Shown here piece by piece: positions 8,101 to 38,453 of a stretch of DNA of 64,000 bases (positions are counted from its first letter, which is position 1; every line of letters begins with the position of its first letter). The stretch spans positions 1 to 64,000 of the forward strand of contig QPMI01000609.1 of assembly GCA_004431415.1 (NCBI GenBank), read 5' to 3'. Made by a program: the position numbers and the translations under genes. The notes beneath the pieces were generated by a model. The model was not told where the DNA came from, searched no databases, and worked only from the letters and a program-made list of their open reading frames with translations. Source of the stretch: Cyanophora paradoxa CCMP329. Lineage: Eukaryota; Plantae; Glaucophyta.

Positions 8101-10845
8101 CGGCTCGCCCGCAACTGCCTCCCGCTGCAGGCGCGCGGTAGTGGGAAGGAAGGGAGGGAGCGGGGGAGCTAGGTCCCTCGCGGTCCCTAGCGCTCGCTAG
8201 GCGTGCTTTCGCCAAGCTTTCTGCTAGGCGGAGCCTAGGCGTGCTAGGCGCCGGGTTCTTTTTCCACCTCCTAGTTCCCCTGCTTATAATCACTTCCCAC
8301 CGCTGCAGGTGCTTACTGGGCCGCCGGCCTCTCCCGCCGCTTCGAGAGCGCCGCGGTCGTCTTCGTCATCCTGGACCCGGGCCCGGGCCGCGGAGGAGGC
8401 GGGGGAGATCGGGAGCGGCGGCCGCGGGGCGAGGGTGAGGAGGAGTCGGCGCGGGCCCCCACCGGGGGCGGGGAAGGGGCCATGGTCCCAACGGACGCGG
8501 GGGATCACGAGGCGCCGCCGGTGGACCTGGGGCGGCTGGGGTCGGCCGTGGCGAGGCTGGAGGCGCTAGCCGCGCGCCACGGCGTCGAGTGGATCAAGAC
8601 CATCGGCGGTGCACGTGCGTCGACGTCCATTTGCAAGTGATCTAAAACGAGCGATCCGATCGCGAGTCATGTATACTTCGAAGCCTTCGAAGCCTTTAGT
8701 CATGTTGTGGGCTCTGCTGAAAAACTAGCCCTGCCCTCTTCTTGCTCCGAATAAACGATCTCGTCTAAGAGAAGGACGCTAGCGCTGAACGAACCCTGAC
8801 ATGAAATGATCTCGCCGGGATCTGATCCCTTCGAATTCTGACTTTGCGCGCAGGCTGGAGCGCGATGTGCGTGGCGGGGGTACACGAGGAGCGCCCGGCC
8901 GCGGGGTCCGCCCTCGCCGCCGCCGCCTTCCGAGTTCGCCTGCGACGCCGTCTCCGCCGCCCGCCGCGCAGGCTTCGCCGCCCGCGCCGGCGTCGGTGCG
9001 CTAACTCGGCGTTTTCGAACGCTAACATAACATAACTCAACTTAACTTGGCTACCCTCTTTAAATTCAAATTAGCTACCTAACTTGACTTGACTTGTTCG
9101 TCTCCGCCGCCCGCCGCGCCGGCTTCGTCTAGAGGGGACGGCTAGATCTAGAGGGGACGCCGCCCGCCTCCGACTCTTCTGCGTGCCTAGTGCTCTCCGT
9201 CGCTCGCGCCGGCGTCGGTGCGTAGAGCTAGACTTTGCGTTATCGAACCTTTGAACTTCACTTAAATCAGCTAACTAACTTAACTTCACTTGACGTTGAC
9301 GGCGGAACGGATACATACATATAGATCGATCGATGTCGCGCCCGTCAGCTTTTATTTCGGCCCCGCCCTTCTGAGAGGATTCCCGGCGCGCGCAGCGGTG
9401 GGACCCCTCGTGGCGGGCGTCATCGGCTCGCGCTGCTCCTACGACGCCTGGGGCGGTGCGCCCTTTTCCTTCGAATTTCCGATCCTTTTCCTCGCTGTTG
9501 CGGTGCGAATTTCCGATCGAATTTCCTGGGGCGGTGCGCCCTTTTCCTTCGAATTTCGTTAACGTTCTCGCTGTTGCTGCTGCTGCCCTCAGACACGGCG
9601 AACACGGCACACCGGATGGCGTACTACACGGAGGCCAACACGGCCCGCTGCACCCGCGCCGTGCGCGCTGCCCCGGCCCCGCCCTCGCAAAACCCGCCCG
9701 CCCCGCCCCTGCCTTCCCCCTCTTATATTCTACTTGCGCGCTGCACCCGCGCCGTATGGCCCGGCCCGGCCCCCGCCCAGGCCTGCCCCTCCGGATCCTC
9801 AGATTAGAATCTAATTGTAATCGCACACGCCTGCCCATGCCCGGCCCGCCCGCAGACGCGGGATCTGATCGCCGATGGGCCCTTTTCCTTCCCATGGTCC
9901 GGCACCGCCTTCGTCAAGGGCAAGGGTACGCCTATCCGACCCCCCGCTCGTACCCCTGATTTACTTTTGCGTACCCAGGCCTCCTGGAGGTGTTCACCCT
10001 GGCGGGGGCGGAGCCCCTACCCCCCCGGGGGGGTCGCGCCGTCGGGGATCGCGATCAAGGGCCACCCGGCGCCGCCCTCGCCCCGCGCGGGGCCCGCCCC
10101 GCCGAGCCCCGTAGCCCGCCCCGATCGCGAGGACCGGTACCCACCCTCCAGGGACGAGGAGGAGGAGGAGGAGGGCGGCCCCGTACCCGTCCGGCCGGGC
10201 CGCTCGCTGGCCGCCCGCCTCCTGTGGAAGGCCCTGGGGTACATGGGCGTGTCCCCGCTCAATGGCGCCCCCTCCATGCTCCGCCTGGCCTTCGCCTCCG
10301 CCGAAGCGGAGATGGCCTTCTGGGAGCGTCGCCGCGCAGCCTCGCTGGGCGCGCTGCGCCAGGCCCTCCTCCTCGGCCTCTGCCACGCCCTCGCCTGGCC
10401 CCTCCTCTGGCTGGGCGCGCGATACCCCCCCGCCGAGCTCCGCCGCTGCCTCGTGCTCCGGTACCTCCTCCAGGGCTCGCCGGCCGCCGCCGCCGCGCTC
10501 CTCGCGCTCCTGTACCCCCACACGGCCCTCCAGCACGCGCGGGCGCTCGTGCTCGTGCCCAGCCTGGCCACGGCCGTCTACCTCGGCCTGCAGCTCGCCT
10601 GGCTCGGGGCCGACGATTCCAGCGAGTTTCCAAATCCAGGGCAGGCCGCCTCGGTGCACGTGGCCGACCTCCAGTTCTTCTCGTACTACTTCCACATGAT
10701 GCCGGGCCCCATCGTACCCTTCCTCCACCGCCTCCCCTGGGACGCCGCCCTCGTCGCGCTCTACGCCGGCGGCCAGCACCGCCGCGTCGGAGCCGCCGCC
10801 GAGGGCGCCCACGAGCTCCTCATCCACCTCCTCGTCCTCGCCCTC
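5195..10845 (+). pseudogene. Membrane class III adenylyl cyclase, 5' half (TM cluster 1, cyclase domain 1, TM cluster 2), interrupted at 10845
   Basis: Exons encode LSFLDPPLEAAF, hydrophobic helices, ERLARNCLP, ARHGVEWIKTIG, MCVAG, GPLVAGVIGSRCSYDAWG/DTANTAHRM, then a second TM block (9967-10845). Confidence 0.85.
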
Positions 10846-10846
10846 C

Positions 10847-10881
10847 CTATCATGCCCACTCCATGGGTCAAACCTATGGCC
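10847..10881 (+). repeat. Left imperfect terminal inverted repeat
   Basis: CTATCatgcccactccatGGgTCaAACctaTGGCC matches the reverse complement of 36411-36445 at 20/35 positions without gaps (manual count). Confidence 0.65.
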
Positions 10882-10954
10882 TTCAGACGGGCCCCGCTAG
10901 GACCGCCCGTGTCCCCCGGGGCATGTGCGCCCGCAGTACCCCAAGGGTCAAATA

Positions 10955-11100
10955 CTTTTCGGCAATTCTGCCATAATTTTGGCGGGGTCCGGCATAATTC
11001 TGGCGCAAATCTGGAATAATTCGGCAGAATTAACGGCATTTTCGGCTATTTCGCACGGAACTCGGCGGGATTACGGCAGAATTGCGGCGGAATTATCGGG
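10955..11100 (+). repeat. Subterminal array of degenerate ~10-11 bp repeats (CGGCNNAATT-like)
   Basis: cggcaatt, cggcataatt, ggaataatt, cggcagaatt (x2), cggcatttt, cggctattt, cggcgggatt, cggcggaatt in tandem. Confidence 0.75.
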
Positions 11101-11255
11101 CCTCGCACGGGTTCGGGCGGGCGGGGCGCTTGCAGTACTTCGGCGGCATGGTTCTGTCGCTTGGGCTGTCTCTGGTACTGGGGTAGAATATTTTTTTGGC
11201 GGGGTCAGGCTTTCCAACTTTGGATCGGGGTTAAGCCCAACCAAACCCGCCGGAG

Positions 11256-11915
11256 ATGAGCACGGGCATCTGCTGCCGGCCACCCAGGAAGCTCGAGTAC
11301 CTATCCCATCACGGGGAAATTCGCGAGGGGGGGCTTGTCTTCTACGGCACCGTCGGGCACCAGGTAGTCTACATCGTCCGGCGCGATTCGGAGGTTGCCA
11401 TCGGCCTGCTTCCCATGCCGACCCTGGCCGAGCTCCCGATCCTCATGCAGTCGCGGTCGGCCGAGTGGGCGCCCCTGGTGTCCGGGGACCTGCGCATCCC
11501 CGTCGATCTCTTGAGGCACCTCGCCGCCCCCATCTCGGACGGGACCCTGCAGCCCCGGCGCGTCCTGGTGGCCGACGGTCGGCAAGCCCTGGAGGTAGCA
11601 CCAGAGGAGGTCCGGCCCGGCACGGGCACGGGAACGAGGCGACGGCCCTGTGTTGCGGCGTACATGAGACCCTTCCTTTCAGAGGGCAGCTGGATCGAGC
11701 CGTACCAGTCCTCCCCCGAAGCACACAGGCTAGCAGTGGTCCGTCAGGTGTGGCCGCATCACATGACGGATGCGCACCCCCGAATGGTCGCCCAGCTAGA
11801 TTGCCTGGTCAGCGGATGGGCCCCAAACCGTGCTTCCCCCCGCCTCGACCTGGCTGAGATTGCTTTTTTGTGCGATCGCGCACCCCAGTCCATAGGGCTC
11901 CGTTCTGTACAGTGA
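11256..11915 (+). CDS. Hypothetical viral protein (219 aa)
   Basis: ATG-to-stop intronless ORF with a T7 tract ~60 bp upstream. No motif recognised. Confidence 0.55.
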   Translation: MSTGICCRPPRKLEYLSHHGEIREGGLVFYGTVGHQVVYIVRRDSEVAIGLLPMPTLAELPILMQSRSAEWAPLVSGDLRIPVDLLRHLAAPISDGTLQPRRVLVADGRQALEVAPEEVRPGTGTGTRRRPCVAAYMRPFLSEGSWIEPYQSSPEAHRLAVVRQVWPHHMTDAHPRMVAQLDCLVSGWAPNRASPRLDLAEIAFLCDRAPQSIGLRSVQ

Positions 11916-11948
11916 TACCAAACATATCGTGCTGTCTCTACTTGAAAC

Positions 11949-12386
11949 TCACTGCCGGGTCCTAGGCCGCTTAAGGCTGCACAGGGCGTACGCCGCCCCG
12001 AGATCGTCTACGGTGCTCCCGGGTGTCCTCGCCCCATCCTTCCACTCCTGCCTCTTGATGACCGCAACGTGCTGCTGGGGGCGCCCAGCGGTCGAGATGT
12101 AGACATCGTATATCTCGGGATCCCGGAGCGCTTCGGAGAAGGAGATGCGCAGTGTCGTCCTGGACCTGGGTCGCACCACCAGGGGCGTGCTTGATGAAGG
12201 GCACCCCGGGCTCCACCGCACGAAGGTGATCACAAAGGCCTCGTGCATGCGAGATGTGTTGCGCAGTAGAATATCCAGGGTGCCCGTGCTCTCGACGGCT
12301 ACCTCGAGCAGGCGGTACGGTGGCCGCATTGGTTCGGCGAGAAAGGTCTCCTTCTTCGTGCGGAATTCCACCGGGGAGAGCGCCAT
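11949..12386 (-). CDS. Hypothetical viral protein, beta-rich
   Basis: ORF from MALSPVEF; divergent from the next gene. Confidence 0.5.
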   Translation of the reverse strand: MALSPVEFRTKKETFLAEPMRPPYRLLEVAVESTGTLDILLRNTSRMHEAFVITFVRWSPGCPSSSTPLVVRPRSRTTLRISFSEALRDPEIYDVYISTAGRPQQHVAVIKRQEWKDGARTPGSTVDDLGAAYALCSLKRPRTRQ

Positions 12387-12493
12387 TGTGCCCCTTCCTG
12401 TATTCCAGACTGCCTCTCGATCGGCTGAGGTTTGACCCCCCACGTGTGCCTTTTTCTGCACCCCTGCTAAAACAGAGTACCCCGCCCACGGCC

Positions 12494-13444
12494 ATGTCCG
12501 CTGCAGGGTTCGGGGAACTCAGTGCAAACTCCGGAAGCATGCACTCTGGGGGTGAGCAGGGCTCCATTACCTTTCAGTGCGCCTTTCCTACTGTCATATC
12601 GGCACGGTACGGATGCCCTGAGACGGGCCAGTGGCAGGATTGGACGGCGTACATGAAGAGCAGAACGGAGGACGGGACCTGGTCCGGTACTACCCTCAAT
12701 CCTCCCGGAGGTTCCTGGGCGCCAATATCGTACGACAGATCCTGGGGTTTCGGGGGCGATCCTGCGTACGGAAGGGGTAAGACGGTCGAGGTGCAGTACT
12801 CGTGTGCGGCGTCCTGTGCCAACGTCCAGGACGGGCGACGCGTTGGAATGGAATGGTGCAGGGTCAACATGGCCAACTTCTGCTCTACCAGGCTGGAGGA
12901 CCAGCGATGTGCGCTCTGGTCCAACACGTACATCAAATCCGCCCGCGATCCCCATACGACGTACGCGGCCATGGACGCCGCGATCGAGACCTACTGCTCG
13001 GGGCACCCCAACGATTCCAAGTGCGCGTGCTGGCTGTTCCAGAAGCAGCTCTACAACAGCATGTACGGGAAGGACGAGCGGGGCGGTATCGTTCCCGCCT
13101 CGTGCGTGGCCCTGGGACCGGGCGGCAACAATCCCTGCACAAAGCCCGGGTACGAGCCCATCCTCCTGACCAAGCTCTCCGGCGGTGCATGCACGGCAAA
13201 CATCCGGAACTGCATTCAAAAGGTGGGCAATCTCACGGGGCTCGGATCCGAGAACGTCAACTTCTCCTGTGAGCTGGGGGGCGGGTCTAGCCTCAACCCT
13301 GTCGCGGGCGGGGGGTCTGGGTCCGGCTCTTCCTCCTCGACGCAGGCTCAGATCATCAAGGGGGTTGACAACAAGGTGCTCTATATTGCAGGCGGTATCT
13401 TTGGTTTCATGTTCCTGCTTGTCGTTCTGAAGAGGTTCCTGTAG
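12494..13444 (+). CDS. Poxvirus A16/G9/J5-like entry-fusion protein with an N-terminal SUEL/Gal-lectin-like domain
   Basis: N-term FQCAFPTVISARYGC...FGGDPAYGRGKTVEVQYSC (SUEL pattern). Cys-rich core NFC..DQRC..W..MDAAIETYCSGHPNDSKCAC..PASC..PC..CTANIRNCIQ. G/S linker and C-terminal TM helix. Confidence 0.7.
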   Translation: MSAAGFGELSANSGSMHSGGEQGSITFQCAFPTVISARYGCPETGQWQDWTAYMKSRTEDGTWSGTTLNPPGGSWAPISYDRSWGFGGDPAYGRGKTVEVQYSCAASCANVQDGRRVGMEWCRVNMANFCSTRLEDQRCALWSNTYIKSARDPHTTYAAMDAAIETYCSGHPNDSKCACWLFQKQLYNSMYGKDERGGIVPASCVALGPGGNNPCTKPGYEPILLTKLSGGACTANIRNCIQKVGNLTGLGSENVNFSCELGGGSSLNPVAGGGSGSGSSSSTQAQIIKGVDNKVLYIAGGIFGFMFLLVVLKRFL

Positions 13445-13446
13445 CA

Positions 13447-15250
13447 CTAAAACTCGATCACAACCAGCCCGTTTCCTCCAGGTCCCGTGGTACCCCCCGC
13501 CGCACAGGGTCCCTCGTAGTCGAGATCATCTGTTCTGGGAGCAGAGGGCCCCGTGTTACCATTGCCCCCTGGAACCGTCAAGGCACCCGTCACACCCGGT
13601 CCGCCAAAGTAACTGGAGCCCCCCCCACCAGCATAGAAGCCTGCACCGCCTCCATAGTACCCCGAGCCACCCCCGCCCCCCGAGTATGCAAAATTGCCCA
13701 CGATCGTACCGCCAGCGTACTTGGAGCCATCGGTTCCTGTGTGGCCGGCACCTCCGCCGGCTGTCTGCGTACCTGGTTGACCTGCTCGCAGTGTGCCTGC
13801 AAAATAGAAGGAGAACTTTCCTCCGGTGAGGCCCCCGCCAACCCCCCCGGGGCCAGTGTTGCCATGGTCAAGATGGCCGCCCCCTCCTCCAGCACCCGCC
13901 GTAATAATATCATCCGTGCCCCCTAGCAGGCGAATAGCAGACCGGCCACCCCCCGATGAGGAGTTTGTGAGGCACTGAACCTGGCCGCCGCCTCCATAAG
14001 GGGCCGCATTCGAGATTGCCGTAGATTTGCCGCCCCCGCCGACTATGATAGTGTACATGGCACCTGGGGTAACAGCCAGAACCCCAGACACGAAGCCACC
14101 CGCACCGCCCTGGTGGCTTCCGGATGCCCCGCCTCCTCCACCGGCCCCCCATAGCTTAACAGAGATCCTCGTGACGCCACCGGGAACAGTCCAGGTCTGG
14201 TCGGCGCCCCTGAATCGGAAGACAACCTTTGGGGCAGGATCGGGCTGCAGGAGCTGGTACCAGACCACAACCAACCCGGGCGATCCGTTATTCGAGCCTC
14301 CATTCCCCCCTGTCCCGGCAGAGGACTCGTAGTCCGCATCTCCTTGGTTGGCGGGAGTCGGGGTTGCCCCTGAATGGGTCAAGCCCCCCGTCACTCTAGA
14401 ATGGGACACAAAGCTGGAACCACCGCCGCCGCCGTTTTGCCCGCCGCCGCCCCCATAATAGCCCCCGCCTCCACCGCCGCCGACAGATGCATTGAGATTG
14501 CCGCCCTTGAATTTCTGGCCGGCCTCTCCGCCCGTTCCCCCAGCGCCCCCTGCTACCTGGGATCCACCGAGACCGCTGTGTGTGTACCCCGAATACCCGT
14601 TTGCACCGCCCACAAGCCCACCTCCCCCTCCCCCTCCGCCGTACTGAATTCCAGCCGACCCCCCTCCTCCGGCAGTGATGAGCTCTTCTGCACCCTCCAG
14701 GATGGCGGACCGTCCGCCTCCAGATCCCATCCCCGTGCTGTAAGTGTGGTAGACCACGTGCCCCCCTCCGCCGTAGACTGGGCTGAGGCAAGCCCCGAAG
14801 TTACCGCCGTACAGCCCTGGGCCTCCGACTACAATCGTCAGCCTTGTTCCGGGGGTGACAGACAGGGTCCCGCCTGCAAACCCACCACCCCCCCCATTGT
14901 TTGTCGACGCGCGTGCCCCGCCCGCACCCCAGAGTTTAATGGTTACGCTTTGGACCCCGTACGGGACGGTCCAATCCTGATCACCCCCCGTGTACCTAAA
15001 AACCGCCTTTTCGGGCGCTGGCGGTGGAAGCAGTACAGGCTTCAAGGGCGGGGACAGGATGCGCAACAGCGAAAGTCCGGACCCCACTGCAATGCTGCCT
15101 ATGCGCTCAAATGCGGCGGAGTTGAGGTACTCACCGAGCCATTCCCTATTTGCGCGGAAGATCTGCAGCGAGGCCCGAGTCGGGACCAGGAGGAGTGTCC
15201 ACGGGGAGAGGTGGGAGATCCCAAGGCTGGCGTAAGTCCTCGGGGCCTGG
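13447..15250 (-). CDS. Glycine-rich protein with two tandem Gly_rich (ALK/LTK-type polyglycine) domains, probable fibre/adhesin; no ATG, probably 5'-truncated
   Basis: Two copies of VFR(Y/F)xGxDQxWTVPxGVxxxxxKLWGAGG...GGGRSAI...ITAGxGG...GYYGGG...GGGGSS...GLVV. The track start at 15087 is GTG and the frame stays open upstream. Confidence 0.75.
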
Positions 15251-15861
15251 TGATCCCATTCCTCGCCCGTGCGACAGGCTCCTGTTCCGGCGGCAGGGTC
15301 GGAGGGGTGGGCTGCACAGGTTCTGGGGCCTTTGCACCCCCTGGAAGGTGGCCGTCGAACTCCCGGTTTGCAAGGAAGGTGACCCCCCCTTGCTCGGAAA
15401 ATAGGGGATCCTGTCTGGCCTCCTTCAGGGTAAGCCCTCCCCTCATGAAGACAGCCTCATCTGTGAGCCTGTCCACGAAAGCACGGAAAGCAGGTCTTCG
15501 CAGGGCCCGAGCTCGTCCTCAAGCGCTGCAACGGCCCTGAGGTACCGTGCACGGGAGCCCTCGTCGTGGATGGATAGGAAGGAGCCCATCAACTTTCCAG
15601 TGATCTGCCTACCGGGCCAAACCCAACCGGCCAAACCTCCTACGATCACGTGCCTGTACCCCATCCCCGTCCAGAATTTGAATTCGGCCAACTGTTATTT
15701 TTTTACAAGAACAACATGGCTACTTTGCTAGAGGTAGCGCACGCAGACAGCAGAAGAGCGGGTCGCCATGATCAGGTTGAAGGGCGTCAACAGGGGACTG
15801 CCACGGGGCCCCCAGGCAAAGAGACCCCCGTACTTGATCTGGGGGACCAGCAAGAACATGG

Positions 15862-16103
15862 CGTGCACGGATCCGGGCTGCCCGCCAGCCCAGCGGAGGG
15901 ACGCTTGCGGTTACTGCGGGCAGGACGGTAGCACGTGCACGGAGGTCCCGTGTGCGCCCGGGCACGTTCGAAATCCGTGCGGGAACGAGTGTATCCACTG
16001 GGAATCTCAGGAGGCCATCGATCGCTTCAATTGCATCTCCAGGCTCCTGGGGAGGGGCAGGAACTTCGAGGATCCCTTCCGCACGAGGTGGGCCCTATGG
16101 TAG
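15862..16103 (+). pseudogene. 3' fragment of a Cys-rich (DACGxCGxDxSxC) protein
   Basis: CTDPGCPPAQRRDACGYCGQDGSTC; same repeat type as 28720-29208. Confidence 0.6.
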
Positions 16104-16111
16104 CTGAAAAG

Positions 16112-16175
16112 TGTGAGGGGCTTGGCCGGTTTTGCTTTCTTTTATACTGTCCCAAAACCGGCCAATCCCCTCATA
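16112..16175. terminator. 23-bp stem hairpin between convergent viral ORF ends
   Basis: tgtgaggggcttggccggttttg / 18-nt loop / caaaaccggccaatcccctcata, with one mismatch and one G-U pair. Lies between stops at 16103 (+) and 16234 (-). Confidence 0.65.
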
Positions 16176-18287
16176 TGAAAAACCGGTACCCCCCTTTTCC
16201 AAAAACTTCACATGATACGGTCACCTGAGCCCATCATATGAAATACCAGTACCCCACATGTCCAAACATAGACTTTACGGGATCAAATTTTCTCCCAGGC
16301 CCGAATAAAGAAGTCCATGGCAGGCATGTATCCGGGGAGTTCCCCTCCGTGGACACCACGCCCGAATGGAAGGAGTACTTCAGCCTCACCCCGCCCGAGG
16401 GGGGTGCGTACAGGATGTGCGCCAACGAGTGCAGGCCCTTTGAGATCCCGATCTCGGGGTGCGCAGACAGGATGCGATGGCGGCCAGGAGATCAGCCGGC
16501 AGTAAAAGTAGCATGGGGGGGTTTGGCCCGTGTCAGTTTTGGTGGCAAGAAATCCCAGATCGGTCCAGAAAAGTACAAACCCATGAAGTTAGACTGGCGG
16601 AAGGTTGCGGGGGCCACAGCGGCGGCGGCGGCAGGCGGGCGGTACCCCGGGGCGGCATTCGGGGCCTGGGACTGGACAGGGTGGTTCTCCCGGCGAGGCA
16701 GGGCCTGGGGCACACCAGCACCCTGACCGTTGAGGACGGAGAGAGACGCGGCCTCAACCATGGCTATATTGAACTGCGAATGGTACTCTAGACTTTAGAA
16801 AAAAAAACCGACCGCACCTCCGACGAAGGACCTGGCCACAACCCAAACGCGACCCAACAATGTCTGCGGCGACATACCACCGTTCCCAGAGCAGCCCGGG
16901 TCCCCTGTTGACGCCGAACCCTACTGGCATAGTGTCACTTTCCGACATAACACCGGGCGAGGCGGAGGAGGCTCTGGGTCGGCACGTTATCGGTTGCGTC
17001 TACTGCCTCGGATATGCGGAGAACGGCGTCCAGGGCGAAGGCTTCCAGGTTTCGCGTGAAATCTGCCCTCTCCCTTTCTTCTCTCATCTGCTTCAGGTCC
17101 TTCGCCCACTCCTGGGCTCGGGTCTGGAGGTTTGTGGGATCTAGGAGCTCCATTGTGATGCACGGTACGAGAGGAGGGGGGAGGTTTGCCGTCCGCGGAT
17201 CAACAGACGTGGCCCCCTTTGCCTGTCTCTCGGCCCTCAGAATCAAAGCCACAAAGCTTCTGGTTCCAGATCAATACTACTCCTGCAACGCTCTACACTC
17301 CAAACGACCTTGTCGGTTTTGCCATGACGGGCATCCGGCTCGTTCGAGGGAGGTCCTGGAGTCCATGGTGCACTTCACGGAGACCACCTGGACGGCCCCG
17401 ACGGCCGGGGGCTCGGGGCAGCGGACGATCTGCAGAGTAGGTGGCCCCCCAGCCGGTATCCCATCCGGTGAGGGATCCCGATTCGGAGGGGGAGGCCAGG
17501 GTGCAAAGGCAGGCCAGCGGATTGGCCCCATTGGCCAGGATAAACACCCCCCTGTCCCGCTTTGCACTGTTGACATCCACGCTGTTTTCCTCGAGTACTC
17601 CCGCCAGGATACGGCCTGTTCGGAGGTGGCACCGGGGGTCTGGCAGGCCTCCTAAGCCCAGGAAGCCCCGAGTTTCATGTCGTAGCATGGGCATGCCCCG
17701 GTAGCGTAATGAAAGGAGGGTACCTCATCACCCCCCGCAAGAACGCGCAGGTCTGCCTTGTCTACACCCCTTTCGGCCCCTACAGAACATCCTGGCAGAG
17801 GTACGACGGTGACTCTCCTCTGCTGCAGACTGTGCACCCTTCTCTGCAAGTAACCTCACTGCAGTAGTAAACCGAATCACACGGGTTACATTTCCCGCAA
17901 AGATATTGTAAGAATCTTCTGGAACGATTCTGTAGAAGCCTGCAACCATCTGCCTGCTCATCTGCTCTAACTCGGCCAATTCCCTGATTACATCATGCTC
18001 TGGGATGTTCATGTTTTGCAACAGTCTGCAGGAGGCACAGGAAAAAGTTTTAGCGGAAGTTCTCCCGGATAAGGCAGAAAGGACCCCAGAACGGCCCTAT
18101 TGCCATTCCAGCCAGGCACTCAAAGCCCGCCTTGACTGCAGCGGTTGCCGGTTTTCTCCGTCGCAGGTCCTTGTGTGCCTCCTCCCATTTTGCTTGAGTG
18201 TCGCCTGTTTTGATGCACCACAGGAAGGAGAACAAGTACAGGGGCTGGGCGACGCCGACGTTTGGAATGGGCGCCGTGTGCCTGAAG

Positions 18288-18566
18288 CTAGTGACCCCGC
18301 TGGGACTCTGGGCGAAAGTGGTGGTGCAGGGAGTGCCTGAATGCGAAAGAAGAGAACTCAGAGAACGTGCATGAATCAAGGAGCCCCCAGCTGGACCTGA
18401 ACTGCTCCAGCGATGCCCAAACCTCCAAGAGATCGTCAATGTGGTCAGCAATCCAGGACGACTCGGCCCTGGTCATGACGTGAGAGTTGTAGGTGTGGCG
18501 CGGGCCCGGGGGGGCGAGATCGCTACCTCTCCTGCGCCCGGCCCCGAATGCGTGAAGTGAGCTCAT
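18288..18566 (-). CDS. Small protein resembling a conserved NCLDV hypothetical family
   Basis: WIADHIDDLLEVWASL..LLDSCTFSEFSSFAFRHS matches the W...DL..W..L...F.DF..F pattern recalled from algal/Imitervirales viruses. Confidence 0.45.
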   Translation of the reverse strand: MSSLHAFGAGRRRGSDLAPPGPRHTYNSHVMTRAESSWIADHIDDLLEVWASLEQFRSSWGLLDSCTFSEFSSFAFRHSLHHHFRPESQRGH

Positions 18567-18657
18567 GCCTGTTGTACGAAAAAGACCTAATTTAGTATAT
18601 TCGGAACGAGAAAGAAAACAGAGCGGCGTCCGGCCGCGCCCGGGCATGGGGTGGCGC

Positions 18658-18966
18658 CTAGTAGTAGTAGTCCTGGCCGTAACCGCCGTAGAAGTCCTGG
18701 GCTGCGGCAACCTTCTTGCCACCCATGGCGGAACCGGCCACGCTAACGAGGGCCAGGAGCAGGCCTGCACAGTTGGCAGCCGTAAGCGTGCCAATCAGGG
18801 CGACCTTCTCCTGGGAGGCGCCCGCATCCTTGGCGCGAGTGATCTCGGTGCCGGCCAGGATTACATTGCAGAGGAAGATGATTCCAAGGAAGATCCAGAA
18901 GATCATACATTTGCCCTTTGCGTTCGGGTCGCAGAACGTGATAAAGCCCGGGAGGTGGAAGGCCAT
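18658..18966 (-). CDS. Small two-TM viral membrane protein
   Basis: 102-aa ATG-to-stop ORF with two hydrophobic helices and an A8 tract ~40 bp upstream. Confidence 0.6.
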   Translation of the reverse strand: MAFHLPGFITFCDPNAKGKCMIFWIFLGIIFLCNVILAGTEITRAKDAGASQEKVALIGTLTAANCAGLLLALVSVAGSAMGGKKVAAAQDFYGGYGQDYYY

Positions 18967-19044
18967 TGCGTGCGAGTGGGAGGCTGTGTGTAGTGTAATG
19001 AAAGAGATTTTTTTTGAACACAGGACCCCTTCTACTCGAAAGAA

Positions 19045-19705
19045 TCAATCCCCTCCAAAGCCGGGTCTCCCGGCGTGGGAGGGACCGGCCCCGGGGTCGT
19101 CCCCAAAATCGGGCCCCGCAAAATCCCCGGACCCCTCCTCCTGCAGAATCACATCAACTCCGGAGACGACCCGGGACGAGATCCGCTTCTGCTTGTACAT
19201 GCGGGTGACGGAACGTTCCGATACCACAAGCTTGCAAGTTGTGAATGCGGTCGAATAGAGCTCCTTGTCCCACTTGGGCTTGTTGACGTTGTTCTCCTTG
19301 CACCAGTTGAAGAACGCTTCCCTGAAGATGCGCTCGGGGCACCATGCCGTGCTTCGGAGGACGACACTCTCGCTCCCGAGGAAGGCATGGACGGGGTTGA
19401 GCTGCATCATCTCGGCCTTGGTCTTCTTGAAGTACTCAGGAACGACAATCCAGATCCCCTGGTTGCCGTACTGCTCGATCGCAGCAAGGTACGCGCGGTT
19501 TCCCTTGACGAGAAGGGCAGGGAGCTCCTCCTTGAGCTTCAGGGGCATGAGGGAGTCGGTGGCCTCCACGGGGCGGTTGAACTCGATAACCATGACACGG
19601 CGAGAGACCGACCCCGAGTTATCGATCCAGCCGGGGCGCTCGTTTCCGGCCAGTATGCCGGGGACGGTCCACCGGACGCTGATGGGCCGCTCACCCTTGA
19701 TTCGG
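19045..19705 (-). pseudogene. D5-like primase-helicase, C-terminal fragment
   Basis: SVRWTVPGILAGNERPGWIDNSGSVSRRVMVIEF...ELPALLVKGNRAYL (SF3 motif C and Arg finger, plus C-terminal domain). Walker A/B absent. Confidence 0.85.
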
Positions 19706-20647
19706 AGGCACGGGTGTAGGAGTTGTGGAATACCAGCTGACTGACGGCGGGGATGCAGGATGCATCGATCGCCGCCTGCTCCCACCGCGGGTGCGTGGAA
19801 TCACCATCGAGCCAGGGCGGCTCCATCGATCCTGTAGACGAGCGTGGCCTCCACTACGGACTGGCCCGCCTGGTTCAACCAGGCCCGGCCCGTATCACCG
19901 CGGGGCGCCGCGGGAATCGCCGGAAAGAAGGAGAGGGATCCTGTCCCTTCTGGTCCCGCGGCCCTCTGCAGCATCAGCCCGGGGACGATGGGAGTGGGGC
20001 AGCCTGTAGTCGGCCCGCATTGTACAGTGTACAGAACGAATACTATCCATACACCGCCCGCATCAGGACGGGCCGGGACATGAATCTCTCCACCTCGGCA
20101 ATGCCCCAGAACTCGCCTCGTCCCTCGAACCTTGAAACGCCCGACGCCCCACCGCAGCCACCGAGGCCGGCGGGGGTGGTGGTGGAAGTGACCAGGAACC
20201 CGCAACCCTCCGAGGGCCGCCCCCGTCCTGAGCCCGCCAGGCCCACCATCCCTTCGCTGGATCACAAAAGCGAGCGAAGGGCGTTCGGCGAGATCCGGTC
20301 AGCCGTCAAGGCCAGGAGCCCGATCGGACCCAACACCTTCCTGCCCAGCGTTAAGATGACGATGGGCGACTTTGCGCTCCGGTACCTTGTGAACAGGATC
20401 CGGAGGCGGGATGAGCTCAGGGAGGCCAGAGAGGGCCCAAAAGATTTTCCGGGCCCACAGGGATCCGACGACCCTGGTGGCTACCATGGACTCTAGCGAT
20501 CGCCCTATGTTTCCGCTGTACTACAGGCTGCCGACCCACACCTTTTTTAACCGGGATGCACGTCGGTCTTACTCGCTCGACTACCCCTCGTTCCGCACCC
20601 CCTCCTTCCGTGATCACAGGATGTACCAGGCGGGACCCTCCCACGAG

Positions 20648-21031
20648 TTGTGGCGTAACTTCTTCGGCTACTTCGATTACCCGACATTCAAGCAGGTGTT
20701 CTCCCAGGTAACCCAGAACTTTGGGGTCATTGTGGGGGATAACACAAAGCCGGGTGCCGCCCGCTCCGAGGACGTGTGCTTCTGGTACCTCGCGGAACAG
20801 CACCCGGCCTTCAGGCTAGGGAGCATGGCTTTTTGGAAGTACCACCTCAAGTACTTTGACCCCAAGGGCGACGATACCTCCGATTCGGATGACGGGTCGC
20901 GGATCCCGGGCGGAGGGGGGAAGGGTGCAAAGGGGGGTGGTGTGCAGGTGCGAAAGGTACCCGCCCTTGGCTTGAGGCCTGGGCCAAGGCAAGAAGAAGT
21001 AGATGAAGATAGCGATATTTCGGATGTTTGA
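20648..21031 (+). pseudogene. A32-like packaging ATPase, C-terminal fragment fused to an unrelated 5' ORF
   Basis: LWRNFFGYFDYPTFKQVFSQVTQNFGVIVGDNTK...EDVCFWYLAEQHPAFRLGSMAFWKYH, typical of NCLDV A32 C-termini. Confidence 0.85.
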
Positions 21032-21413
21032 ATTCAGTCTGGTATACATTCGCAGCGAGTCACGGGAGTAAAACACTGTAACGAGCAAGGATCTCCAGCT
21101 TGGCCCGTTGGGTGTAGGCCCATGCACTCATTGGCTCTTAGGTACTCGTTTCCAGGCTCCCCGTCGTTCTGGCCGTCTCCCAGGCTCGGCGTGGGGCGCA
21201 AAAGAGGTACATCCACAACCCGCTCCGAATTGGGCATGCCGGCAACCCAGGAACGGATCCGGGAGATGCCGATAGTGTACCAGACGCTGAAGGTGGCGGA
21301 GGAGGCATCGCGACGGGAGAGCCTGGCGCTGACCCTCTGAAATGGCATGTCCCGTCCGAACCGGGGTCCCACAGGAGCCACGTAGTAGGGAGGCGTCCAC
21401 TGTTCGGGGCGCC

Positions 21414-21821
21414 TCAGCTGTGACCTGAAACGGATGCCGACGAATATGATCCGCTCGGATTCCGAATCACCCCAGTTTCCGGGATGTCCACCAGAACACC
21501 TGCGAAAAGGGCTAGTTCGTCTCGTTTCGCGGGGGAGGCGGCGCGCAGGGCGGCACGTACCCCCTCGAATACGATGCGCCGGTTCGACAGGTTGGCCTTT
21601 CGGAAGGCTTCCTCCATCAGCACCGAGACAATAGTAAATGCCTTTTCAATGGATTTCGTATGAAGACGGAGCTCGTCGGGCGGAACCCAAGTCATCTTTT
21701 GGGGATCTATACCCTCTATGAAATCTAGAATGGCTTCAATTCGCTCCATCGCGGACACACGCCACTCGGCCCCCCGGTTAAGGGCACCAGGGGGAGGGAT
21801 GGGCGGGGGCAAAAGATTCAT
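21414..21821 (-). CDS. Hypothetical helical viral protein
   Basis: Intronless ORF with an A6 tract upstream. Confidence 0.4.
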   Translation of the reverse strand: MNLLPPPIPPPGALNRGAEWRVSAMERIEAILDFIEGIDPQKMTWVPPDELRLHTKSIEKAFTIVSVLMEEAFRKANLSNRRIVFEGVRAALRAASPAKRDELALFAGVLVDIPETGVIRNPSGSYSSASVSGHS

Positions 21822-21893
21822 ATTCACGTACCTTCTTGCATATGGAAAAAATCGAGACCCGCCAGAGTGCTGTGATAGATAAAGGCCGAGGAA

Positions 21894-22580
21894 TCAGCGG
21901 CGACGTGACCGAGCGCTCGCAAGGGCACGGCGGACCACAGCCGCCGTGGCCCTGCGCACGTATGCATTCGAACGCCGACGAGGAGGGGGTGCGGTCAGCA
22001 GGAGGATCTGGGGCTCCGGAACTGCCATGGCAATGGGAACGGACGAACGCCGGGCCCGCGACCGCTTGGGCTTGGGGGGGCTTTGATACTCCTGGGTAAT
22101 TACAATCCGGGGGTTGTTGGTGAGATACCGTTCCTGCTCATCGATGGTCATATCCGTCCCGAATCTGTCAAGCGCGGGACCATACAATTTGAGCAAGGCC
22201 GCCGTTGGGCCGTTCTTGTTCGCGAGCGATCCCAGCAGCGACTTATTCCCAATTGGCCTCGCGTGAATAACCGCAAGCTCTTCTGGGGTATAATTATTCT
22301 CAATCGACGTGGGTCGCTTGCGTTTACCGCGGCTGGGCCCTGCCTCCACGACCTCAATGTGGTTCTCAGGGATAACAAGACGCCCGGTTCGCTTGAAGAT
22401 TTCCATCATTCCATCTAGCAGACAGGTGGATCCCGCCCTCCGCATCGAATCCCCGGGGTGTGATGGTGCGGATGTAGGGATCGTGCCCCTGTACGATCAT
22501 CGCCGTGTACTCCTGGAGCTTGTGGAATTCAGCCTGGCGGATCAGGACTTCGGCCGCCAGCTTCTGGGGCTGGGTCCAGC
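21894..22580 (-). pseudogene. Hypothetical viral protein fragment(s) with basic C-terminus
   Basis: Overlapping frames 22366-22587 and 21894-22445; no ATG at the 5' junction. Confidence 0.4.
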
Positions 22581-22925
22581 CCCGCAAATTCGAAGACCGT
22601 CTCGTCGATTCCGAACTTGGCAGTGAACGGAACCTTCAGAACAACCTGCTCCGGACCCTGCCCGGTGGGGTTCTTGATCACGTAGATTGCACCGTTGTTT
22701 CCCCTGCCCAGCTCCCCAAGTATGCTGATCTGGGTTCTGCTTGGCTCGAGGTAGAACTGGTCCATGCTCTTGAGTATGCCGGCAACCGGGCCGCTCGCCC
22801 TGCTGGTGGCGATCCTGGACCACGCAAGGAGGCACTCCCGCTTCAGGTCGCCCTCCGAGATCGTGTACCACCTCATGAAAGTTGCGGGATCGGCTGCATC
22901 ATCCTTGGTCTCCCTGGGATCAGAG
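22580..22925 (-). pseudogene. Ser/Thr protein kinase N-lobe fragment
   Basis: ILGELGRGNNGAIYVI...QVVLKVP (Gly loop and VAIK-equivalent); the remainder is missing. Confidence 0.65.
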
Positions 22926-22928
22926 GCG

Positions 22929-23477
22929 CTAAGTCGTCGAAGTGGAGGGGCCGGCACCGGCCTGCGTAAGGAGATCTGCGGTTGTTGTTCCGGTTCCCAG
23001 GCCGGACGAGGATCCCGTTCCGGCGCCGGATCCGGTGCCCGTCCCCTGATCGCTACGGGGGCACCGGGGATCGTTGGGGTTCGCGGCGCAGAACATACCG
23101 ACCACCGTCCTGCAGTCCGATCCCTGGCGCATGGTGCACCCATCGACGCAGGAGTAGGAAACACGGAGATTCTTGGAGCTCTCGTAGGCCGGGTCGCCGC
23201 CCTGCCCGTAGCCCCTGTAGGAATCCACTCCCCAGGTGCCGTCGCCCCCGGCCATCGGAGAGAGGGTGGTCCCCGGCCACGATGTGTTCTCCACCCTCTG
23301 CTGAAGATGCGCCGTGAAGTCCGCATTCTGGTGACTCGGGCACGTGAGGTCCGTTCCTGTACCGTAGCAAGCCTTGATGATCTTGGGAAACTGGCACGAG
23401 AACACGAGGGGTGTCGTCACTGCATCCGCCCGATCTATGTTGGGGTGGCGAATGGGATCAACTGCAAAGGAGCTCAT
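22929..23477 (-). CDS. Paralog of the lectin-A16/G9-like protein, short or truncated
   Basis: FSCQFPKIIKACYG...GGDPAYESSKNLRVSYSC...FCAANPNDPRC aligns by eye with 12494-13444; no TM tail. Confidence 0.7.
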   Translation of the reverse strand: MSSFAVDPIRHPNIDRADAVTTPLVFSCQFPKIIKACYGTGTDLTCPSHQNADFTAHLQQRVENTSWPGTTLSPMAGGDGTWGVDSYRGYGQGGDPAYESSKNLRVSYSCVDGCTMRQGSDCRTVVGMFCAANPNDPRCPRSDQGTGTGSGAGTGSSSGLGTGTTTADLLTQAGAGPSTSTT

Positions 23478-23532
23478 TCCAGGTAATCCTATTCTGTCCT
23501 GATATTTTTTTGTGGTGCACTACGAAATAACA

Positions 23533-25103: not shown

Positions 25104-25766
25104 CTAATCGGATATCTGGATAGCGTCTCGGGCAGTTTTGCCATCACGGGGGCGCGAATCCGATGGACCGAAGGAGCCCAGAAACTGTAGGTCCCCCCCA
25201 GAAGAGACGCGGGGCTGGACACGGGCTGGGGGCTGGCGGTCATAGTTGTACCGCACCTGCGAAATGCGGAAAGGCTGGGCGGAGGGCGGGGTGGGCACCG
25301 GTTCCTGATAGTTGTACCTCACTTGGGAAATGCGGAAAGGCTGGGCGGCGGGCGGGGTAGGCACCCGAACAGGGGGTTCCGGATAGTTATACCGCACTCG
25401 CGAAATATCGAAAGGCCGGGCGGCTGGTGGGTTAGGCATACTTCCCGCAGGATCGGTATCGTAGTTGTACCGCACTTGTGAAATATCAAAAGGCTGGGCG
25501 GCGGGTGGGGTAGGCACGCGGCGGGGGGGTTCCGGGATGGTTACCGCAGCATCCCGAGCGGGCTGGCCGTAATTGTAAGCAATAGGGAATGGTAAGTTGG
25601 GCCGGGGAGGCCCTTCGTGCCTTGCCCGGTGTGGTGCAGGTTCCTCCTCCTCGGGGGAAGCCAGAGGACGCTTACGGGTTGCTACTGGTTGCGGGTGGAT
25701 GTCGAGTCGCCTAAACTCAGCAGGCTGCCTGCCAGGTCGGGGGCCTGTCAGGACAGCGGCAGGGGG
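25104..25766 (-). CDS. Pro-rich repeat protein 3' fragment, fused in frame to the A32 N-half
   Basis: Four P(T/N)PPxAxPFxISxVRYNY repeats plus one degenerate copy (PFPIAYNY). Confidence 0.65.
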   Translation of the reverse strand, partial: PPAAVLTGPRPGRQPAEFRRLDIHPQPVATRKRPLASPEEEEPAPHRARHEGPPRPNLPFPIAYNYGQPARDAAVTIPEPPRRVPTPPAAQPFDISQVRYNYDTDPAGSMPNPPAARPFDISRVRYNYPEPPVRVPTPPAAQPFRISQVRYNYQEPVPTPPSAQPFRISQVRYNYDRQPPARVQPRVSSGGDLQFLGSFGPSDSRPRDGKTARDAIQISD

Positions 25767-26192
25767 CTGGGCCGCTATGACCAAGTGGATGCCGTTGTGT
25801 CTCCCGTTCATGAAGACGTAGCGCATGTACCGATCGTTCGCGATCGCACTCTTGTTGAAAAGGCAATCGTCCAGAACGATGAACACGCCAGGTGGCTTTT
25901 GTCCCGTCTTCGCAATCCTCTGCTGGTTCTTGACGATTCCCTTGATGACATCGGGATCGTACTCTGCATGGATGAACAGGCCCGGGCAGTGCTTGGACCA
26001 TGTTGGGTTCGCCGGCGATTCCGTGGGGGAGAAGATGACCCCGGAATCTATGTGCCGGTAGTGGTACATCAGATCGAGCATCAGGGTTGTCTTCCCTGAA
26101 CCCCGCCGCCCAATCACACCGAAGACTCGGTAACCCGAGAAGTGTTTCGGATCGAACTTCCTGAGGTGCAGGCTCTGACCCCCGGGCGGCAT
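25767..26192 (-). pseudogene. A32-like packaging ATPase, N-terminal half
   Basis: LRKFDP..VIGRRGSGKTT (Walker A), FSPTE, FIHAEYD, FIVLDDCL (Walker B), FMNGRH..VIAAQ; homology stops immediately after the Q. Confidence 0.92.
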
Positions 26193-31046: not shown

Positions 31047-31244
31047 GAAGACCTGGGGGGCGCAGTAGACCCCGTTTCGGTACGCGAATATGTGCCGGTC
31101 CCGCACAAGCTCGGGAAACTCCATCGTCAGGCAGTTCTTGAGGCTGGTGACCAGGCAGCCCCTAACCGACGCGTGGGAGTGCATGAGCTTGTACATGCTG
31201 TAGTAGACATCCTTGTTGGTGAGCTCCTCGACCAGGCGCTCGAT
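31047..31244 (-). pseudogene. D5-like primase-helicase, internal (D5_N region) fragment
   Basis: LKNCLTMEFPELVRDRHIFAYRNGVY matches the F.EL..DRH..SF.NG.Y motif. Confidence 0.75.
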
Positions 31245-31449
31245 TGACATGATCAACGAGGTGGACGCTAAGCTTGAGTCGAAAGCATCCGCGGCCGGGC
31301 TTTTCAATAGCTTGACAACAAGTATTCTATTCATCGTGGCGGGCATAGTGGTCATTGCCTTCCTTGTCATTCGTTTCGGGAAATCAAAACCGAAAGCACC
31401 TACATCCGCGGCGGCTGCTGCCACCGCAGCAGCCGCCGCTGCCACCTAA
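31245..31449 (+). pseudogene. C-terminal fragment of an L1/F9-like virion membrane protein
   Basis: INEVDAKLESKASAAGLF, then a TM helix and basic tail; 5' part missing. Confidence 0.45.
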
Positions 31450-34755: not shown

Positions 34756-35349
34756 CACGGCTAGACAGGAATTGTAACAATGAAAGGGCCGCCGGGGGCG
34801 ATCCGGACTACGAGACCACCCTCAGGCGCCACAACCACCCGGGGCTCGTCTCCGGGCGCGGGGAGCGGCATGCGGACGAGCTCGCCGAGCGTGCAGGGGA
34901 GACGGGCAACCCCTGGCAGTCCCCGACGCTGGAGATGCGGGCAGTCTACTTCAACGTCCGGAGAGCCCTCGAGGGCGCACTGCGCACCAAGCTCGGCGCA
35001 GAGGACCTGCAAGGGTCCAGGCAGGGCGTGCTCTCCGGCATGAAGAACATGTTCACGGCAGCTCAGATCCGCCGCCTCCTACGGGCGATGTGGATAGAGC
35101 CTTTTGCAGCCAGGGACGACCCTTCCGAGGAGAGGAACCGCAGGATGGTCGCCGAGATGTTCGTGCTCGATGAACCATTTGGGTGGCTGCGGGACGGGTC
35201 CGCTCAGGTCGCCCGCACGAGGCGCCTGGTATGGAAGCGGGCCACGCGGTCCCAGCCCCGCCTCCTGATTCACCGGGAAGACAACTACCAGCACCCAATC
35301 AACAAGACGAAGGAGTGGTTCCTTGATTTCATCGAGAACGTTCTGCCCA

Positions 35350-36251: not shown

Positions 36252-36410
36252 TTTTGAATGCTCCCGAGAACCGGCCAAACCCACTGGCCAAACCCGTTTC
36301 GATTTGCCGTACCCCCTCCCCTTCAGGTTCTGGTGTAACTCTTAAACCCTGCGCGGTTTTCGTCCATACCCCCCCTGACGGGCCCCCCCGCCGCACTAAG
36401 AGCTCAGACG

Positions 36411-36445
36411 GGCCAGCCGTTAGAGCCCCCTTTTACGCGCGATAG
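36411..36445 (-). repeat. Right imperfect terminal inverted repeat
   Basis: Reverse complement is CTATCgcgcgtaaaagggGGcTCtAACggcTGGCC. Confidence 0.65.
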
Positions 36446-38453
36446 CCTCGAGTTCCTCGGCTGGGTCAACGAGTACGAGGTCCGCCGCGAGTTCGAAGCT
36501 TCAGGCTAAGGCCTTGCAATTGGCCTTGGCCTTGGCCTATGCCTAGGCCCCCCTAAGCTTCCTTTCTTCTATAGCTGAAGGCTAACTACAAATAGAAGTC
36601 TAACTCCTCCTGAGGCTGATCATGATCCTCGGCTGGGTCAACGAGTACGAGGCGCGTACGAGGCCAAGGCTGAGGCCTAGACCTAGGCCTAGGCCTAGGC
36701 CCCCCTAAGCTTTCTCCTTCTATAGCTCAAGGCTAACTACAAAGCCAACCCGTGATCCAATGCTTAACTTCTCTCTCTCTCTCTCTGTCCTGCAGGCGCG
36801 CCGGGAGTTCGAGCTGCCGCCGCCGTGCGGCTGAGTCCGTGCGTCCCTCACAAGTTAGGAAGCTAAAGCTCTCTTCTATCTATAGCCAATTCCTAGCCAG
36901 TGAAGCCGTATTAACAGCCAAGGAAGAACGCCAAATCCTTCCTCCTAAGCTTTTTGTGAGGCCTTCTACTTCCTTCTACTAAGGCTACTTAAAGCTCATT
37001 AGAAGTCTAATTATAATTCCCAAGGCCGAGCTGATTAAAGGGCCCCTCTCTCCCCCTCTGCCCCGCAGGCGTCGTAGCGGCGGCTGCTGGAGCTCTCGCT
37101 GCCCTCCGCCGTCCTCAGCCGCATGCTGGGCGAGGAGGGCGCCCTCGACGGCTCCCGCACCCTCCGCTTCCCCTCTGGTGCGTTATTGTAATTAGATCTT
37201 CGAATTCCAGATCCTGGAGAGTGATTTACAGACTTTTGATTAGCTTGGAAGGAGCGAACTGTCCTTGTAATTAGCCGGCCCTCGCCTCTATTTGATCGAA
37301 CCCTGATTGTTCGTTCCGGGCAGTCGTGATCCTGTGCGCCGACATCGTCGACTTCACGCCCCTGTGCGCGCGTACCCCCCTTCCTCCCCCCCCCGCCGGC
37401 CTAGGCCTCACCTTCTTCTTCGCCCGTACCCCCGCCGGATCGATATCGCGCCCCCTAATTGTAACCGCTGCGCCCGCTCCAGATCCTCGCTGCTGGACGC
37501 GGCCGACCTCGTCCAAATCCTCGACGAGTTCGTCACGGAGGTTCGAATTTCGAATCCGCCCCGTACCCCTCTCCAATGCGAATTCGAAAATTCGAATTCG
37601 GATCCGAAGGTCGACGCGGAGGCCGAGGCGCGGCGGGCCGTCCGCCTATAGCTCGTCGGTGCGCCCGTACTGCCCCCCCCCCCCCCACTCCGGCTCAGGT
37701 GAGTTAACTAACTATGGGGTAGGGGATCCGGACGCCTACTACGCGGTGCTGGGCCTGGAGGAGCCGGCGGGCCCCAGCGAGGCGGTCCGCCTTGTGGAGC
37801 TGGCCGAGCGCCCGGCGGCCTCATCGCCGCCCTCGACGCCGTCGCGGCGCGGGCGAGGGCCCGCCGCCCCGGCACCCCGCTCCCCGCCCTCCGAGCCCGC
37901 GTCGGAGTGGCGCTGGGCCCTGCGGCGGGGGGCCTCGTCGGAGCCCGCCTTCGACCTCTTCGGGCCCGCCATCGAGCGCGCCGCGGCGCTCGAGAAGGAC
38001 GGCCTGCCCTCCCGCATCCACGTATCCCCCGAGGTCCGGGACGCCATTGCGGGGGAGTACGAGACCGAGCCGCGCGCCGCCGCCGAGGGGCCGCACGCGC
38101 ACGCGTACCCCGCCGAGGAGCCTGCCACCCCCGCCTCGCTTGCCGGCTCGATACGGCGCCTCCCGACCCTCCGCTCCTCCAGCTTTACCGCGGGCCACGG
38201 ACACGGCCCGGGCGGGACCGCCGGCAGCCCCGTCGATTTCGGGGGTACGGGAGGCGCCGGCGCCGCCGGTACCGGTACCCCCGAGCCGTTCTCGGGGGAC
38301 GTCGACGCCCCCTCGAGCTCGTACCTCGTCGTCCGGCGCGTACCCCGGAGCGAGCGGAGCAGCCGCCGAAGCTCGGCCGCGAGCGAGGAGAACGCCCACC
38401 GAGGCCTAGGCCTAGGCCTAGGCCCAGGCCCAGGCCTCTCGCCCCCGCCGCAT

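Follow-up and report, generated by a model that had tools for sequence, protein, structure and literature searches.

The window, a stretch of 64,000 nucleotides from the genome assembly of Cyanophora paradoxa CCMP329, contains a host cyclase gene, one exon of which is interrupted by a 25.6-kb insert (Table 1). The interrupted gene appears to be decaying. The insert occupies positions 10847 to 36445 (25,599 bp), starts with the tip CTATC (10847-10851), and ends with the tip GATAG (36441-36445). Its GC content is 61.7%, compared to 68 to 70% outside, and in public contigs its depth is about that of the flanks. The observed/expected CpG ratio is 0.85 in the insert versus 1.09 and 1.14 in the flanks, a difference that either methylation-driven loss or a viral composition could explain.

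Table 1. Features of the interrupted exon, the insert, and its ends (TSD, target-site duplication)
Feature	Position	Strand	Evidence or remark
Host exon, left half (membrane segment) of a two-cyclase-domain adenylyl/guanylyl cyclase-like gene	10243..10845	+	100% identity to gene model P0007 (PF00211)
Left flank CCCTCC	10841..10846	+	5-6 bp target copy, or 3-bp TSD plus variant tip base 10846; contigs of 4/4 runs agree
Left tip CTATC	10847..10851	+	At least 3 other loci start matching exactly here, 4/4 runs
Left end module	10847..10920	+	Patchy inverted match to right end; motif 10883-10893; GCCCGT 10905-10910
First ORF, 219 aa	11256..11915	+	One of its two homologs is a gene model of C. paradoxa; NCBIfam match below cutoff
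Glycine-rich repeat protein (ALK_LTK_GRD / Gly_rich_2)	13447..14730	-	E 1.8e-25 (Pfam search)
Primase-helicase, C-terminal piece	19045..19800	-	PHROG primases E 1e-9; tblastx to L030
A32 packaging ATPase, C-terminal piece	20645..20857	+	Residues 173-243 of P0001
A32 packaging ATPase, N-terminal piece	25767..26192	-	Residues 1-144 of P0001
Primase-helicase, upstream piece	31053..31253	-	tblastx to the same gene region of L030
Right end module	36366..36445	+	Direct motifs 36375-36384 and 36404-36414; hairpin 36403-36427; tip GATAG 36441-36445
Right flank CCTCGA	36446..36451	+	C36446 common to 3/3 other tip-reaching right ends among the matches listed
Host exon, right half, EFLGWVNEYEVRREFE..., then second cyclase domain exons	36450..36510	+	Downstream cyclase reading by eye

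Interrupted exon and viral interior

Removal of the insert in silico yielded a continuous host reading frame (...LLVLALEFLGWVNEYE...). The target across the empty site reads CCCTCG, itself C-N4-G, and the frame is regained only with duplicated target bases or with a blunt insertion, which preserves it if placed between the CTC codons. In the interrupted exon, CTC follows CTC in 21% of cases, and adjacent identical 3-mers occur at 8% of positions. Host paralogs were sought to fix the length of the empty site (LALEF or LALLEF); this search returned just the gene's own model. In 4/4 runs, a single contig reads across the left junction without any difference, and the insert's own right junction (36434-36500) is covered by 0 contigs among the matches listed in 3/3 runs. 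Gene model P0007 (10243-10926) passes from the host exon into the insert, where it ends after 27 codons. Since the model crosses the junction, the annotated protein is a chimera.

Other repeats were observed in the window. To the right of the insertion lies a degenerate duplication of about 170 bp comprising the exon end and an AGGCCT-rich intron (36456-36592 and 36627-36743). Inverted AGGCCT-rich repeats, 79% complementary, are found 1.7 kb apart (36667-36718 and 38386-38437). Minus-strand coding repeats with a periodicity of about 99 nt, arranged in 195-nt units of 60 to 81% identity, belong to a long repeat protein gene (59659-63255).

Judged by the similarities of its predicted proteins, the interior of the insert is a scrambled relic of a giant endogenous viral element, in which pieces of nucleocytovirus hallmark genes are flanked on both sides by host exon. 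The two halves of the A32 ATPase lie 5 kb apart on opposite strands (the C-terminal piece being inverted), and the two primase-helicase pieces are separated by 11 kb. An intact A32 ATPase of 293 aa (P0001), 81% identical to the split one, is encoded on three Logan contigs, the longest of which measures 21,551 nt. Compared with 80 IMG/VR viral-contig loci in a profile search, P0001 showed 36 to 46% identity, several of these loci being from giant-virus MAGs; separate searches for close A32 loci gave none. P0001 may point to a relative that is more complete and could encode the integrase. Within the insert, no integrase, transposase, recombinase, capsid, or polymerase was detected by searches of 282 (143 + 139) stop-to-stop frames of 60 aa or more with Pfam, of 42 with PHROG, and of 32 with NCBIfam. 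Likewise, tblastx to 82 viral loci gave no match for a capsid, an rve integrase, or a tyrosine recombinase, although divergent capsids could escape all of these searches.

The first ORF has no family in Pfam or PHROG and no usable ESM Atlas match. A likeness to a poxvirus L1/F9-type membrane protein for the ORF at 12530-13441 and to a Cys-repeat nuclease for that at 35079-36251 was considered but found no confirmation. An in-frame fusion behind the broken A32 N-terminal piece consists of a tandem repeat of about 70 to 75 nt (25240-25550; PFxISQVRYNY units). A segment of 446 bp (16197-16642) is skipped by a contig of run X1 and retained in X2, X6, and X20; loss of DNA from the insert may still be under way among culture lines.

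Terminal modules and sister copies

The initial annotation had described CTATC and GGnTCnAACnnnTGGCC at equal distances from the two tips. Every letter it named is present, and the first 35 nt of the insert agree with the reverse complement of the last 35 at 20/35 positions, GGnTCnAACnnnTGGCC being among the matches. This value was reached by 3 of the 51,126 other 35-mers of the insert on both strands (chance of about 6e-5), for an end length that was picked post hoc; without the 5-bp tips, the remaining 15/30 was reached by 158/51,126. A perfect inverted match extends over only 5 to 6 bp at the tips, and the end hairpins are no better than those of shuffled sequence (z of -0.3 to -1.7). The motif TCAGACGGGCC, reported near both ends in direct orientation, was found at 10883-10893 and 36404-36414, both on the plus strand, and these are its only two exact occurrences in the window. 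An 11-mer or longer was common to 4 of 4,879 random pairs of 60-nt windows. When one mismatch was allowed, the 10-mer motif occurred 14 times in the window versus 12.9 expected; its weight is therefore only positional. Two further copies had been missed at first: CTGACGGGCC at 36375, in direct orientation near the right end, and the partial GCCCGT at 10905, inverted and near the left end.

Contigs of public sequencing runs were used to look for further copies. The left junction was present in 20 of the 24 listed runs, 19 of which were flagged as possible sources of the window DNA, so that their agreement verifies the sequence and does not constitute independent biology. Contigs were aligned for four runs over 9000-23500 and for three runs over 36060-36500. 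At the left end, at least three further contigs per run start at exactly 10847 and stop at 10893, 10914, and 10920; at least two more match partially (10857-10897 and 10850-10905). At the right end, at least five further contigs match from 36384, 36399, 36403, 36404, and 36417, and at least three of them reach the tip. The boundaries of the insert are thus shared with other loci. Among the matches listed, three unrelated left flanks (agreement of 0.59, unrelated DNA being expected to give 0.59) and two right flanks that are likewise unrelated (0.57 versus 0.64 expected) adjoin identical tips. The ends of the insert belong to a low-copy family with about six to eight copies as a minimum. Chance or an assembly artifact as the source of the end similarity is hardly conceivable: the insert's own right junction is crossed by no listed contig, as an artifact would have it, but the low chance level, the exact left junction in all four runs, and the recurrence of both tips elsewhere speak against it.

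In at least two loci, both ends lie on one contig, 28 and 13 nt apart, in 3/3 runs compared at both ends (the left- and right-end records were paired by length and depth). Mini copy A comprises 74 nt of the left end, 28 nt of other sequence, and 44 nt of the right end (146 nt) and is located midway in an 8,158-bp contig of run X6; in mini copy B, the corresponding lengths are 73, 13, and 49 nt, and the match is lost 13 nt before the tip. In both, the left-end sequence breaks off near 10915 and the right-end sequence resumes near 36370, and their sizes are about 146 to 150 bp. Two other contigs carry about 1 kb adjoining an end that is unlike the interior of the window insert, and at least three different interiors adjoin the same ends. 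The conserved stretch covers about 47 to 75 bp per end; in several alignments, the match ends at the direct motif or shortly beyond it, some 47 nt from each tip. The initial annotation had likened the ends to asymmetric binding sites of an integrase or transposase. Conservation from the tip to the direct motif is what such putative sites would be expected to display, but the motif, although found in most copies, is not invariant: position 10885 is changed from A to G in one copy, and the motif is partly deleted in one right end.

The right end (36399-36446) was also found in contigs of 1,106 and 87 bp with about three times single-copy depth, an AT-rich interior, and 44 nt in common beyond the tip. 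This probably represents one insertion within a triplicated region. Placing the 44 extra nt of the 87-bp contig as a left end produced at least two violations at every offset.

Junction bases and mode of insertion

Flanks that leave the shared ends at the same position were seen as a merged consensus, in which the other loci are not separately readable. Ties in this consensus seem to be broken alphabetically (probability of 0.15 versus 0.002), in which case G and T calls represent the majority. Among the matches listed, C follows GATAG in 3/3 other right tips, and G precedes CTATC in at least 2/3 other left ends, C doing so in none; the joint chance of this pattern is 0.006. At the window locus, the flanks are CCTCC (10842-46) and CCTCG (36446-50), which had originally been read as a 4-bp TSD (CCTC) with an extra C on the left or as a 5-bp TSD with one mismatch. 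The letters at this locus fit such a reading and the host frame is restored; however, it does not hold as a trait of the family, as the extra C is not shared by the three other left ends listed, whose match ceases at 10847. In the other copies, GATAG is followed by C and CTATC is mostly preceded by G, which disfavors the 4-bp TSD. We scored the merged flanks of the other copies relative to G/C tips with a 3-bp TSD. On this scale, CTATC/GATAG tips reached 0.009 to 0.05 with a 4-bp TSD and 0.002 to 0.011 with a 5-bp TSD, and a 5-bp CNNNG target rule is contradicted by a T majority at -5, where C is needed. A family-wide 4-bp or fixed 5-bp TSD is thus highly improbable.

On the same scale, G/C edges without a TSD scored 2.5, and a 6-bp TSD scored 0.03 without a base preference and 1.5 to 24 with a C..G preference that was picked post hoc. 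In mini copy A, a 3-bp TSD has a score of 0.41 relative to no TSD. An exact TSD is seen at no locus, the window copy having a mismatch and the others being merged consensus only. At the window locus, a single change at 10846 is required for the 3-bp reading (CTC/CTC, with the element at 10846-36446) and likewise for the 5-bp reading; the 6-bp reading, with CCCTCG as its target, requires two. The C/G pattern fits a duplication of 5 to 6 bp with C first and G last, which we propose tentatively, or a 3-bp duplication with G and C as the outermost element bases, which is rather unlikely; base 10846 conforms to neither rule.

An integrating enzyme, which was not found in the window copy, likely took hold of the insert by these ends. 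We lean slightly towards a staggered-cut, DDE-type insertion of a nonautonomous element by an enzyme acting in trans, because this reading accounts for the mini copies, the variety of interiors, and duplicated target bases with the host frame intact. A DDE-type integrase or transposase supplied from elsewhere would hold the ends via the ACGGGC-containing motif, present as one direct and one inverted copy on the left and as two direct copies on the right, and its cuts would fall at the CTATC/GATAG tips; target DNA would then be duplicated when the staggered break is repaired. By analogy with Ds or MITE elements, the copies of about 150 bp are likely internal-deletion derivatives moved in trans. 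Counting against DDE chemistry are the Pfam, PHROG, and NCBIfam searches, which found no integrase or transposase gene in the window copy, and a layout that closely resembles phaeovirus att ends. Furthermore, known DDE-integrating viruses have long terminal inverted repeats (TIRs), according to the available text of two reports (10.1101/2024.09.03.611062; PMC12220804).

The resemblance to phaeoviruses leads to a different reading, in which the two ends are attL and attR of a circular giant-virus genome integrated by a tyrosine recombinase at a short core and the apparent TSD is an imperfect overlap. Phaeovirus attP sites are described as an AT-rich inverted repeat around CC/GC, with an inverted repeat on the left and direct repeats on the right (PMC13236599, PMC12993054; available text), and the left inverted ACGGGC/GCCCGT pair and the two direct copies on the right follow this layout. 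Offset, imperfect TSD-like repeats are also described, in the portion available, for Polinton-like viruses (PLVs) bearing a tyrosine recombinase (PMC12220804). Recombination of this kind would require no later mutation for the overlap mismatch, and the cargo is of nucleocytovirus type. The G before CTATC and the C after GATAG give GC at both junctions of the other copies among the matches listed, and the score of 2.5 for G/C edges without duplication agrees with it. The candidate core would be GC (palindromic joint GATA-GC-TATC) or a 5-6-bp C..G overlap. At the window locus, however, a GC core kept once puts the host exon out of frame, and the left junction is CC. The flanks have no fixed core beyond one base, no tyrosine recombinase was detected in the window copy, and the extension of 44 nt in the 87-bp contig does not qualify as a left end. 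No circle junction was seen among the contigs listed or in viral_contigs, where 16/16 pattern matches were chance; other end-pattern searches gave two chance matches and zero in viral_contigs and zero in metagenome_contigs.

As far as the available descriptions go, the endogenous phaeoviruses (Ectocarpus EVEs, FsV-158) share with the insert a nucleocytovirus cargo, short conserved asymmetric ends, and an AT-rich inverted repeat at the tips, and FsV-158 has GC at both junctions, as do the other Cyanophora copies. In contrast, the insert is a scrambled relic of 25.6 kb, compared to 350 to 400 kb, with no recombinase found and an apparent target duplication, and mini copies of about 150 bp are without mention in the available text on phaeoviruses (PMC13236599, PMC12993054). 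Overall, we regard tyrosine recombination as possible but rather doubtful. Strand transfer by an IS607-type serine recombinase or by an HUH enzyme with subterminal hairpins is improbable. Blunt or dinucleotide-core insertion between the two Leu codons that form the CTC repeat would retain the frame, such repeats are common in the exon, and both ends have small hairpins; yet these do not exceed shuffled sequence, and no such enzyme was found in the insert. IS607 elements are described, in the available text, as lacking a TIR and using a GG core (PMC6188088), whereas the insert has inverted tips and no GG core. A TSD is likewise not a feature of IS607.

Relation to known systems

Staggered-cut insertion in trans also bears comparison with the punuivirus of Chlamydomonas, for which giant-virus relics of 5 to 48 kb with 6-bp TSDs and no identified integrase are reported (10.1101/2024.09.03.611062; available text). 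The likeness lies in giant-virus DNA with defined termini, in an integrase not found in the element, and in relics made by deletion. However, the punuivirus TIRs span 10.8 to 14.8 kb with ACC-GGT termini, as far as described, whereas the Cyanophora ends match perfectly over 5 to 6 bp and are conserved over 47 to 75 bp. A 6-bp TSD of the punuivirus type is favored on the merged flanks only with the C..G preference, and the apparent duplication here reads as 5 bp with one mismatch.

Members of Ds-like families have only their ends in common and vary in size and interior (PMC3260210; available text). Maize Ds2/Ds-l4 and MITEs, as described in the available literature, resemble the Cyanophora copies in short TIRs with subterminal motifs, filler DNA, and short deletion derivatives. 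Unlike Ds-like elements, the Cyanophora insert carries 25 kb of viral DNA, and its family numbers about six to eight copies as a minimum. Ac/Ds elements have an 11-bp TIR and an 8-bp TSD. CACTA/CMC transposons could be likened to the insert for a possible 3-bp TSD (CTC/CTC if the element is 10846-36446, such identical adjacent 3-mers being frequent in the exon); their termini are CACTA/CACTG, and the Cyanophora tips are (G)CTATC.

Polintons and PLVs agree with the insert in size (15 to 30 kb), GC dip (0.617 versus 0.68 to 0.70), an A32-type ATPase, and a primase-helicase. In contrast to these elements, the insert has split genes and an ATPase matching giant-virus-type sequences. Self-blast and a repeat search found no TIR of hundreds of base pairs, only the 20/35 match, and no capsid, pPolB, rve, or tyrosine recombinase was detected. 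The ends therefore differ from Polinton TIRs, as had been noted at the outset, and the insert is not a Polinton.

In the available text of the literature, integration signatures are described for two giant-virus lineages (PMC13236599, PMC12993054, 10.1101/2024.09.03.611062). Giant endogenous viral elements in C. paradoxa are reported in PMC12344493, the available text of which does not give ends or a mechanism, and nothing on viral inserts in this alga was found in the available text of PMC5294986, PMC10120064, and PMC6704402. No description of the Cyanophora insert ends was found in the article texts searched; the supplements of PMC12344493 and PMC12220804 may list the locus.

The locus combines a base-exact left boundary in a host exon with about six sister loci as a minimum, and the alga can be cultured and has a public assembly, which puts the insertion chemistry within reach of a few junction reads. 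If the flanks showed a plain 6-bp TSD and a partner transposase were found, the ends would be ordinary. If the ends are those of a host transposon, the insert would exemplify a transposon with 25 kb of viral DNA as its cargo. Conceivable, though rather unlikely, is a glaucophyte-infecting lineage of giant viruses that integrates by a compact end module of its own, which would add a third signature to the att sites of phaeoviruses and the TIRs of the punuivirus; having escaped as a unit of 150 bp, this module would move in trans and ferry large pieces of viral DNA through the host genome.
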